Source of the DNA: Escherichia coli
Lineage (GTDB): Bacteria; Pseudomonadota; Gammaproteobacteria; Enterobacterales; Enterobacteriaceae
Direction: 5' to 3' (one strand)
Length of the DNA: 64,000 bases
NCBI RefSeq assembly: GCF_001677475.2
Contig: NZ_CP015229.1
The position numbers and the translations under genes were made by a program. Numbering within the stretch: position 1 is the stretch's first letter; every line of letters starts with the position of its first letter. The notes under the pieces were generated by a model that saw only the letters and a list, made by a program, of their open reading frames with translations, searched no databases and was not told the DNA's origin. This document shows, in pieces, positions 26,042 to 47,046 of this stretch.

Positions 26042-27337
26042 GTGCTGGAACGGCTGTCGTGGAAAAGGCTGGTGCTGGAGCTGCTACTTTGCTGCCTCCC
26101 GGCTTTCATCCTGGGTGCATTTTTTGGTTACCTGCCCTGGTTTTTGCTGGCATCGGTAACGGGACTGCTTATCTGGCATTTCTGGAATTTATTGCGCCTT
26201 TCATGGTGGCTGTGGGTGGATCGTAGTATGACCCCGCCACCGGGGCGTGGTAGCTGGGAACCGCTGCTATACGGCTTACACCAGATGCAGCTGCGAAATA
26301 AAAAACGCCGCCGTGAACTGGGCAATCTGATTAAACGCTTTCGTAGCGGCGCGGAGTCGCTACCCGACGCGGTGGTGCTGACCACGGAAGAGGGCGGTAT
26401 TTTCTGGTGTAACGGTCTGGCGCAACAGATTCTTGGTTTGCGCTGGCCGGAAGATAACGGGCAGAACATCCTTAACCTGCTGCGTTACCCGGAGTTTACG
26501 CAATATCTGAAAACGCGTGATTTTTCTCGCCCGCTCAATCTGGTGCTCAACACCGGGCGGCATCTGGAAATTCGCGTCATGCCTTATACCCACAAACAGT
26601 TGCTGATGGTGGCGCGTGATGTCACACAAATGCATCAACTGGAAGGGGCGCGGCGTAACTTTTTTGCCAACGTGAGCCATGAGTTACGTACGCCATTGAC
26701 CGTGTTACAGGGTTACCTGGAGATGATGGATGAGCAACCGCTGGAAGGCGCGGTACGTGAAAAAGCGTTGCACACCATGCGCGAGCAGACCCAGCGGATG
26801 GAAGGGCTGGTGAAGCAATTGCTGACGCTGTCGAAAATAGAAGCCGCACCGACGCATTTGCTCAATGAAAAGGTTGATGTGCCGATGATGCTGCGCGTTG
26901 TTGAGCGCGAGGCTCAGACTCTGAGTCAGAAAAAACAGACATTTACCTTTGAGATAGATAACGGCCTCAAGGTGTCTGGCAACGAAGATCAGCTACGCAG
27001 TGCGATTTCGAACCTGGTCTATAACGCCGTGAATCATACACCAGAAGGCACGCATATCACCGTACGCTGGCAGCGAGTGCCGCACGGTGCCGAATTTAGC
27101 GTTGAAGATAACGGACCGGGCATTGCACCGGAGCATATTCCGCGCCTGACCGAACGTTTTTATCGCGTTGATAAAGCGCGTTCCCGGCAAACCGGCGGTA
27201 GCGGATTAGGATTAGCGATCGTGAAACATGCGGTGAATCATCACGAAAGTCGCCTGAATATTGAGAGTACAGTAGGAAAAGGAACACGTTTCAGTTTTGT
27301 TATCCCGGAACGTTTAATTGCCAAAAACAGCGATTAA
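26042..27337 (+). CDS. phoR: Phosphate regulon sensor histidine kinase PhoR
   Basis: 431 aa; H-box HELRTPL; HATPase G-boxes; synteny. Confidence 0.95.
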
Positions 27338-27743
27338 TCCGCCTTTGTCATCTTTTATTGCCATAAGCCAGCCGATGCTGGCTTATTTTCTTTGCAGTCA
27401 AAATACGGGCGTTAGATTTTACAACGGTTGGTGATTTTTTGTTCGCATGATTAGCCATGTCTTTTTCACGGAAATAGTGTTTTATACTGGTTGGTGATTT
27501 CTTATCGCTATATACCTCTGGTTTTTAGATCCCTCCTTGCTTTAAAACGTTATAAGCGTTTAAATTGCGCTTCAGGTGCTGTCATACTGACTGCATTAAC
27601 GCGGTAAATCGAAAAACTATTCTTCGCCGCGCCTGGTTGGGAGTATTTCCCGCTAATATTGTTTAAATATACCGCTGTATCATCCCCAGGGATTGGCACA
27701 AAAATTTAACGTTACAACACCACATCCACAGGCAGTATGATTT

Positions 27744-46550: not shown

Positions 46551-47046
46551 AGATGTCGCGAAAAGTCGCCTGAAGATGAGTAATCCGTGGCATCTGCTTG
46601 CTGTCGGATTCGGAAGTGGATTAAGCCCAATCATTCCTGGCACGATGGGATCGCTGGCGGCGATTCCGTTCTGGTATCTGATGACCTTTTTGCCCTGGCA
46701 GCTCTATTCGCTGGTGGTGATGCTGGGGATCTGTATCGGTGTGTATCTTTGTCATCAAACGGCGAAAGACATGGGCGTGCACGATCACGGCAGCATTGTC
46801 TGGGACGAATTTATTGGTATGTGGATCACGCTCATGGCGCTGCCGACCAATGACTGGCCGTGGGTCGCCGCCGGGTTTGTGATTTTCCGTATCCTGGATA
46901 TGTGGAAACCGTGGCCGATCCGCTGGTTTGATCGCAATGTACATGGCGGCATGGGGATCATGATCGATGATATTGTCGCTGGGGTGATTTCTGCTGGAAT
47001 ACTCTATTTTATCGGCCATCACTGGCCGATGGGTATTCTGTCGTAG
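46528..47046 (+). CDS. pgpA: Phosphatidylglycerophosphatase A
   Basis: 172 aa; start overlaps the thiL 3' end by 23 nt; membrane protein. Confidence 0.9.

Follow-up and report, generated by a model that had tools for sequence, protein, structure and literature searches.

The 12-bp direct repeat upstream of Escherichia coli brnQ is lineage-specific and variable, and is most likely incidental linker sequence

The 12-bp direct repeat located between phoR and brnQ in Escherichia coli is real but ordinary, being lineage-specific, variable and not the recognition sequence of a regulator in its own right. The two 12-mers are most likely incidental linker sequence. The joint explanation that we favor, with moderate confidence, is that they act as recognition-free linkers in a region of fixed geometry to which Lrp binds. 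Lrp binding to this spacer and the control of brnQ by GcvB are both already published; what is gained here is a sharper map for brnQ regulation, with its promoter and transcription start site (TSS), three phased Lrp-like blocks and a conserved block, named B below. All positions refer to the window, i.e., the whole 64-kb stretch of DNA that was analysed (64,000 nucleotides).

Results

Position of the repeat with respect to phoR and the brnQ promoter

The gene order in the window is phoB-phoR-brnQ-proY. The phoR stop lies at 27337 and the brnQ ATG at 27744, which leaves a spacer of 406 bp, within which the MG1655 annotation places nothing. The features of this spacer on which the argument depends are the following.

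27363-27386, plus strand: phoR intrinsic terminator hairpin, then a T run
27426-27437, plus strand: copy 1 of the 12-mer GGTTGGTGATTT (extended, 27417-27440), at -148 to -137 relative to the TSS
27489-27500, plus strand: copy 2 of the 12-mer GGTTGGTGATTT (extended, 27480-27503), at -85 to -74 relative to the TSS
27537-27565, plus strand: sigma-70 core promoter of brnQ-proY, as deduced from the mapped TSS
27573-27574, plus strand: TSS of brnQ-proY, from two independent datasets
27574-27743, plus strand: brnQ 5' UTR of 170 nt, with a CA-rich GcvB R1 target region at ~27695-27735

A first-pass annotation of this DNA had described two occurrences of GGTTGGTGATTT, each followed by T-rich sequence, in an intergenic region of about 400 bp. 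This description is accurate in every respect: both copies are exact on the plus strand, and the sequences on their 3' side are TTTTTTG and TCTTATC. The similarity also extends beyond the 12-mers, with 20 of 24 nucleotides identical between 27417-27440 and 27480-27503 and a start-to-start spacing of 63 bp. The only further site in the window with at most one mismatch to GGTTGGTGATTT is found at 46874.

The TSS was taken from two published datasets. SMRT-Cappable-seq places the start of the operon of b0401 and b0402 at NC_000913.3:419420, corresponding to position 27573, and Kim et al. 2012 report a brnQ TSS, supported by 54 reads, that precedes the ATG by 170 nt (upstream sequence ending in TTAAATTGCGCTTCA), corresponding to position 27574. 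No other TSS is listed by the two datasets in the queried stretches of the spacer, which began ~90-115 nt after the phoR stop. The mapped start points to a core promoter made of a -35 element TTGCTT (27537-42), a 17-bp spacer and a -10 element TTAAAT (27560-65). This promoter is non-consensus and was missed by a strict sigma-70 consensus scan of the spacer, which returned no match. It lies in a region that is 86-100% conserved in an alignment of 78 upstream regions (see below).

Both repeat copies are found downstream of the phoR terminator and, given a TSS at 27573/27574, far upstream of the brnQ start, so that they are not transcribed from the brnQ promoter. They end at least 73 bp upstream of the TSS, which discards them as a core sigma-70 promoter element. 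The possibility that copy 2 serves as the -35 element of a TATATA sequence at 27509-14 was also discarded, as no TSS is reported there.

Two observations concern the promoter itself. The segment 27524-27572, which comprises the core promoter and a GATC at 27528-31, is nearly invariant across the family. In addition, a palindrome, TTTAAA-N3-TTATAA-N3-TTTAAA (27541-27564), covers the promoter spacer and the -10 element and may be a candidate operator.

The repeat exceeds shuffled sequence and is not unique in real sequence

An exact 12-mer repeat occurs in 0.9% of dinucleotide shuffles of the spacer. None of 1000 such shuffles reached 20/24, the maximum being 19; chance alone is therefore not a comfortable origin for the 20/24 repeat, since all 1000 shuffles were beaten. 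Real DNA sets another scale: exact direct repeats of at least 12 bp that lie within 400 bp number 14 in the 64-kb window, as against 1.3 in shuffles, and 6 of 314 real 406-nt tiles reach at least 20/24. The repeat thus lies beyond the shuffle model, yet it ranks no higher than about the top 2% of real sequence and is not the only case.

With the dispersed REP/BIME and ERIC repeats, the 12-mers have in common that they are short repeated sequences, intergenic and downstream of a terminator. However, those families have many copies per genome and palindromic units, whereas the brnQ 12-mers occur at one place per genome and are non-palindromic. The 40-nt context of each repeat maps to a single place per genome, no inverted-repeat arms were found at the two copies, and an Rfam scan of the phoR-brnQ spacer yielded no match; membership of a dispersed repeat family was rejected on these three grounds. 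A genuine REP-like array in the spacer was seen solely in Escherichia sp. MOD1-EC7003, as an insertion of ~740 bp between the phoR stop and the terminator region (locus L004, 1354-2100). It contains about six tandem REP/BIME-like units and a spurious ORF repeating ...VGLISVAHQAI.

Coding and structural readings of the same segment were tried and rejected as well. A small plus-strand ORF of 16 aa (27447-27497) and a minus-strand ORF of 36 aa with its start near 27459 both come without a Shine-Dalgarno sequence, and their length and frame are not kept in the alignment. Phasing of T-tracts for intrinsic curvature was discarded by inspection, the tracts being out of 10-11-bp phase.

The 12-mers are the least conserved part of a rigidly spaced region

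We retrieved 80 Enterobacteriaceae loci in which phoR-brnQ synteny is kept, and aligned 78 of the upstream regions. The first-pass annotation had named a lack of conservation in orthologous brnQ upstream regions as evidence against a regulatory role for the repeats, and this lack is what we find. The 24-nt similarity at an offset of 63 amounts to 17-20/24 in five Escherichia species only; it drops to 13-14 in some Citrobacter and to background (8-13) in other genera, and an offset of 63 ranks first in just 11 of the 78 species. Outside Escherichia, the core of copy 2 is 0.43 identical to the window, which makes it the least conserved segment of the region, and that of copy 1 is 0.67 identical. 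The core promoter, by comparison, reaches 0.86, and a further segment stands out at a similar level:

27438-27460, no strand assigned: conserved block B, TTTGTTCGCATGATTAGCCATG, with 84% identity in 73 non-Escherichia species, at -136 to -114

Copy 1 reaches into the edge of this block with its 3' half (TG.TG.TTT). The same picture holds within the genus Escherichia, in which the cores are the lowest segments (0.81 for copy 1 and 0.85 for copy 2) while the flanking blocks are 0.99-1.00 identical. The 12-mers were thus rejected as a conserved operator of any factor, being Escherichia-only, the segments of lowest identity, and polymorphic in E. coli. Block B also holds an imperfect palindrome, CATG-N6-CATG.

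In contrast to its sequence, the length of this region is fixed. Between 27438 and 27560, 78 of 78 species have exactly 122 bp, with no net indel, and the segments on either side vary in length. Parts of this 122-bp interval are only 43-60% identical (aligned loci L002-L081, ~2195-2317). A length kept at 122 bp despite divergent sequence indicates a strict constraint on spacing or phasing in the brnQ upstream region, and argues for a nucleoprotein complex that would be constrained in its geometry. The lack of net length change between block B and the -10 element in 78 species predicts a strict dependence on helical phase.

Predicted Lrp sites flank the repeats

The 15-bp Lrp SELEX consensus is YAGHAWATTWTDCTR, and candidate sites were scored by counting matches out of 15 against this sequence; the published consensus takes the form CAG-N9(A+T)-CTG. 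The first-pass annotation had read the repeats as phased binding sites for a regulator such as Lrp. The cores of the 12-mers fit the consensus poorly, with at best 9-10/15, a score within the top 2-6% of positions. The Lrp-like sequences are instead found in flanking blocks, one of them at 27443-57 within block B and two others as follows.

27475-27489, no strand assigned: best match to the Lrp consensus in the spacer, TAGTGTTTTATACTG, 13/15, of the type YAG-N9(AT-rich)-CTR
27506-27520, no strand assigned: second phased Lrp-like site, 31 bp downstream of the 27475 site

The 27475-89 site, which abuts copy 2, ranks within the top 0.01-0.02% of window positions by score; YAG-W9-CTR sites number 7 in the 64 kb, this one included. 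Its arms are kept across species (Y in 99%, G in 86%, C in 95%, T in 83% and R in 97%), and it scores at least 11/15 in 72% of them. The 27506-20 site is weak in E. coli (10/15) and strong in most genera, with the top cross-species mean consensus score (11.96/15) and at least 11 in 88% of species. Lastly, block B contains a weak Lrp-like site (27443-27457; 11/15) that also forms a peak in the cross-species profile of the Lrp consensus. The three peaks of this profile, at 27443, 27475 and 27506, are 32 and 31 bp apart, with conserved arms (Y-R-G ... C-T-R) and variable centres across species. Phasing by about three helical turns is therefore a property of the flanking blocks, of which the 63 bp between the repeats makes two periods. 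The assignment of these phased Lrp sites is a prediction from consensus counting and conservation, in a spacer that is 60% AT (versus 49%) and with a consensus that is degenerate.

Peaks of Lrp genomic SELEX-chip are reportedly resolved to ~100-200 bp, which is too coarse for an assignment to the 12-mers. Shimada et al. 2015 describe such a peak in the phoR>brnQ spacer at 418534, which, with brnQ starting at 418815 and assuming U00096.2-type numbering, falls at about 27463, midway between the copies. A secondary source counts brnQ-proY among the operons that Cho et al. assigned to the Lrp regulon by ChIP-chip. The proposal that Lrp acts on this spacer is thus supported, and Lrp control of the phoR-brnQ region was already known; the assignment of Lrp to the 12-bp repeats as its binding sites is not supported. 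In the literature consulted, neither a nucleotide-level footprint nor reporter data for brnQ were found.

It is useful to compare brnQ with the Lrp-regulated promoters of ilvIH, pap and artP, in which a sigma-70 promoter is preceded by multiple degenerate Lrp sites in phase. The brnQ operon shares with them an AT-rich upstream region, a role in amino-acid transport, YAG-N9-CTR-like sites ~31-32 bp apart, a strictly kept distance to the promoter and, from published in vitro work, binding of Lrp to the spacer. It differs in that its 12-mer repeats are neither consensus-like nor conserved, and in that its Lrp sites are predicted from sequence. Cooperative binding of multiple Lrp dimers, with wrapping of DNA by the oligomer, is documented for other transport operons.

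Variation within E. coli and a mirrored T-to-C change

The phoR-brnQ spacer is present in 5424 of 5426 complete E. coli genomes. The context of copy 1 is exact in 3846 of the 5426, with 27425T in 918, 27427A in 362 and 27432C in 155 genomes; that of copy 2 is exact in 5112. The 27427A variant, GATTGGTGATTT, is the K-12 allele of copy 1, so that the two copies are mismatched in K-12. In a comparison of six strains, the two copies, 48 nt in total, account for 7 of the 16 variable sites of the spacer (binomial p=0.0014).

One of these changes is mirrored. S1-CHI-01-A, 042 and ~140 other genomes carry a T-to-C change both at 27432 in copy 1 and at 27495 in copy 2, which is the homologous position. 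In strain N3 and five further genomes, both changes are present but the additional G-to-A at 27489 is not, and strain 1EC213 has the T-to-C in copy 1 alone; the genome counts are nested (155 > 148 > 142). In the four remaining Escherichia species, both positions are T. The remaining variants, 27427A, 27425T, 27489A, 27490T and 27484G, have no mirror in the opposite copy.

Misalignment-templated mutation between imperfect direct repeats is among the classes of mutational mechanism known in E. coli. The nested T-to-C counts, together with the restriction of the copy 2 likeness to Escherichia, suggest a flow of information from copy 1 to copy 2, as in templated mutation between quasi-repeats. The brnQ case resembles this mechanism in having two quasi-identical 24-nt copies 63 bp apart, in which a derived T-to-C in copy 1 would be followed by the same change in copy 2 in nested sets of genomes. 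It differs in that a single concerted event is seen at brnQ, deduced by comparison of genomes, and in that the other variants are unmirrored. The mirrored change could also reflect selection for identical copies, or coincidence. As a parallel change in both copies, it may serve as a minor illustration, taken from nature, of templated mutation between short quasi-repeats.

Two peculiar records were noted in this survey. In NZ_CP136025.1 (hit H30), which is a record with two places, the spacer match begins at query base 59 (~27388); this suggests an insertion or a rearrangement just past the phoR terminator. The spacer also occurs on one plasmid record.

Discussion

Proposed organization of the brnQ upstream region

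We propose that the 12-mers constitute an Escherichia-specific, polymorphic quasi-direct repeat that would have no recognition role of its own. They would fill two linkers, fixed in length and free in sequence, in a rigidly spaced region extending from about -165 to -50 upstream of the sigma-70 brnQ-proY promoter; this is the region to which Lrp binding was assigned by the published in vitro work, at low resolution. Lrp most likely binds it cooperatively at the AT-rich sites of the YAG-N9-CTR type that are phased by 31-32 bp (27443-57, 27475-89 and 27506-20), and would wrap the DNA over the phased array. The 63-bp spacing of the repeat would then simply correspond to two periods of the Lrp array. 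The likeness of copy 2 to copy 1 presumably dates from the Escherichia lineage, where it would be due either to chance, in a T-rich linker free of constraint, or to templated (misalignment) mutation with copy 1 as the donor. The nucleotides contacted by Lrp, the wrapping of the array, the direction of regulation and the origin by templated mutation are all inferred. Some contact between Lrp and the 12-mers themselves is possible: GGTGATTT occurs in each copy and agrees with the very loose Lrp motif G-N2-3-TTT of the pap/artP type.

Alternative explanations

The 12-mers might instead be paired recognition sites of one regulator, either Lrp or another looping or wrapping factor, placed on the same face of the DNA six helical turns apart. 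Identical cores at a distance of 63 bp, in a spacer that binds Lrp in vitro, are what such a pair would look like; the repeat exceeds the shuffle expectation, the loose Lrp motif G-N3-TTT is found in both cores, and the parallel T-to-C in the 042 clade would fit selection for matched sites. Against this, the cores are the least conserved segments in Escherichia and beyond, are hypervariable in E. coli and mismatched in K-12, and copy 2 has no counterpart outside Escherichia, even though the brnQ gene, the brnQ promoter and the fixed spacing are conserved throughout. The cores also remain at 9-10/15 for Lrp, and no other consensus matches both copies in register in a panel of 24 textbook regulator consensus sequences (48 tests). 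PhoB box, CRP and sigma-54 readings made by eye were likewise rejected for misfitting spacing or bases. We thus regard paired sites as unlikely.

A slightly less probable alternative is that the 5' part of block B (TG.TG.TTTTTT) was gained a second time in Escherichia, which would provide the factor that binds block B with an extra, lineage-specific site; Fis-like and ARG-box-like matches are candidates. This would account for the fact that the 3' half of copy 1 belongs to a family-wide conserved block and that copy 2 resembles copy 1 in Escherichia only. The consensus panel did return matches for Fis (10/11) and ArgR (12/16) at 27430, overlapping the 5' edge of block B, each in the top 0.1% of the window; with 48 tests, however, the p-values are borderline. 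Both matches involve copy 1 and block B only and depend on non-conserved bases, for example the A of GGTGA, which they require and which is not conserved in other genera. The corresponding matches at copy 2 are weak (8/11 for Fis and 10/16 for ArgR), and copy 2 lacks a repeat of GTTCGCATGATTAGCCATG, in which the conservation of block B is highest.

We find it improbable that the copies are a functionally coupled pair required to be identical. Such a pair could, for example, consist of two contact points of one Lrp oligomer or of a looping factor, or of slipped-strand DNA partners. Were this true, the T-to-C of the 042 clade would represent co-evolution, and Escherichia would have gained a lineage-specific layer of brnQ control.

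Lastly, the repeat could be what is left of an ancient tandem duplication, 63 bp in length, of a regulatory module with two sites. This would explain why the spacing equals two Lrp periods and why a 1-nt gap extends the similarity slightly past 24 nt, by TAG..TTTTA to its left and TCGC to its right, but it is very improbable, given that the 63-bp units are unrelated outside 24-28 nt and that species with the same indel-free 122-bp architecture show no unit similarity, which makes the similarity younger than the architecture, not older.

The brnQ 5' UTR and GcvB

Downstream of the Lrp-bound region with its linkers, the map extends into the brnQ 5' UTR. In a scan with GcvB region R1, the strongest predicted pairing falls on 27695-27731, at -23 kcal/mol and thereby in the top 0.15% of the window. 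The CA-rich stretch (27695-27735) is fully conserved from ~27715 to the ATG. This pairing prediction agrees with the published GcvB control of brnQ, which is a verified GcvB target in Salmonella with an R1 site conserved in E. coli.

The folding of the 5' UTR as a whole is unexceptional (z=-0.04), and RNAalifold found no consensus structure in it. Local elements are nevertheless present: a hairpin formed by 27600-05 and 27626-31 has a compensatory CG<->UA pair (18 versus 46 sequences), a second hairpin, GGGA/UCCC, lies at 27639-51, and an invariant 8-nt complementarity links 27586-93 to the SD-proximal 27729-36, beside the start codon. A highly conserved UTR loop, GGTAAATCGAAAAACTATTCTTCGCC, also scores as Lrp-like DNA (27610-24).

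Further downstream, internal starts located within brnQ and upstream of proY are listed in two datasets (~28849 and 28900). Kim et al. 2012 place one at 419920 in v2 numbering, with 7 reads, and SMRT-Cappable-seq one at 420747 in v3 numbering, where it is flagged as novel.
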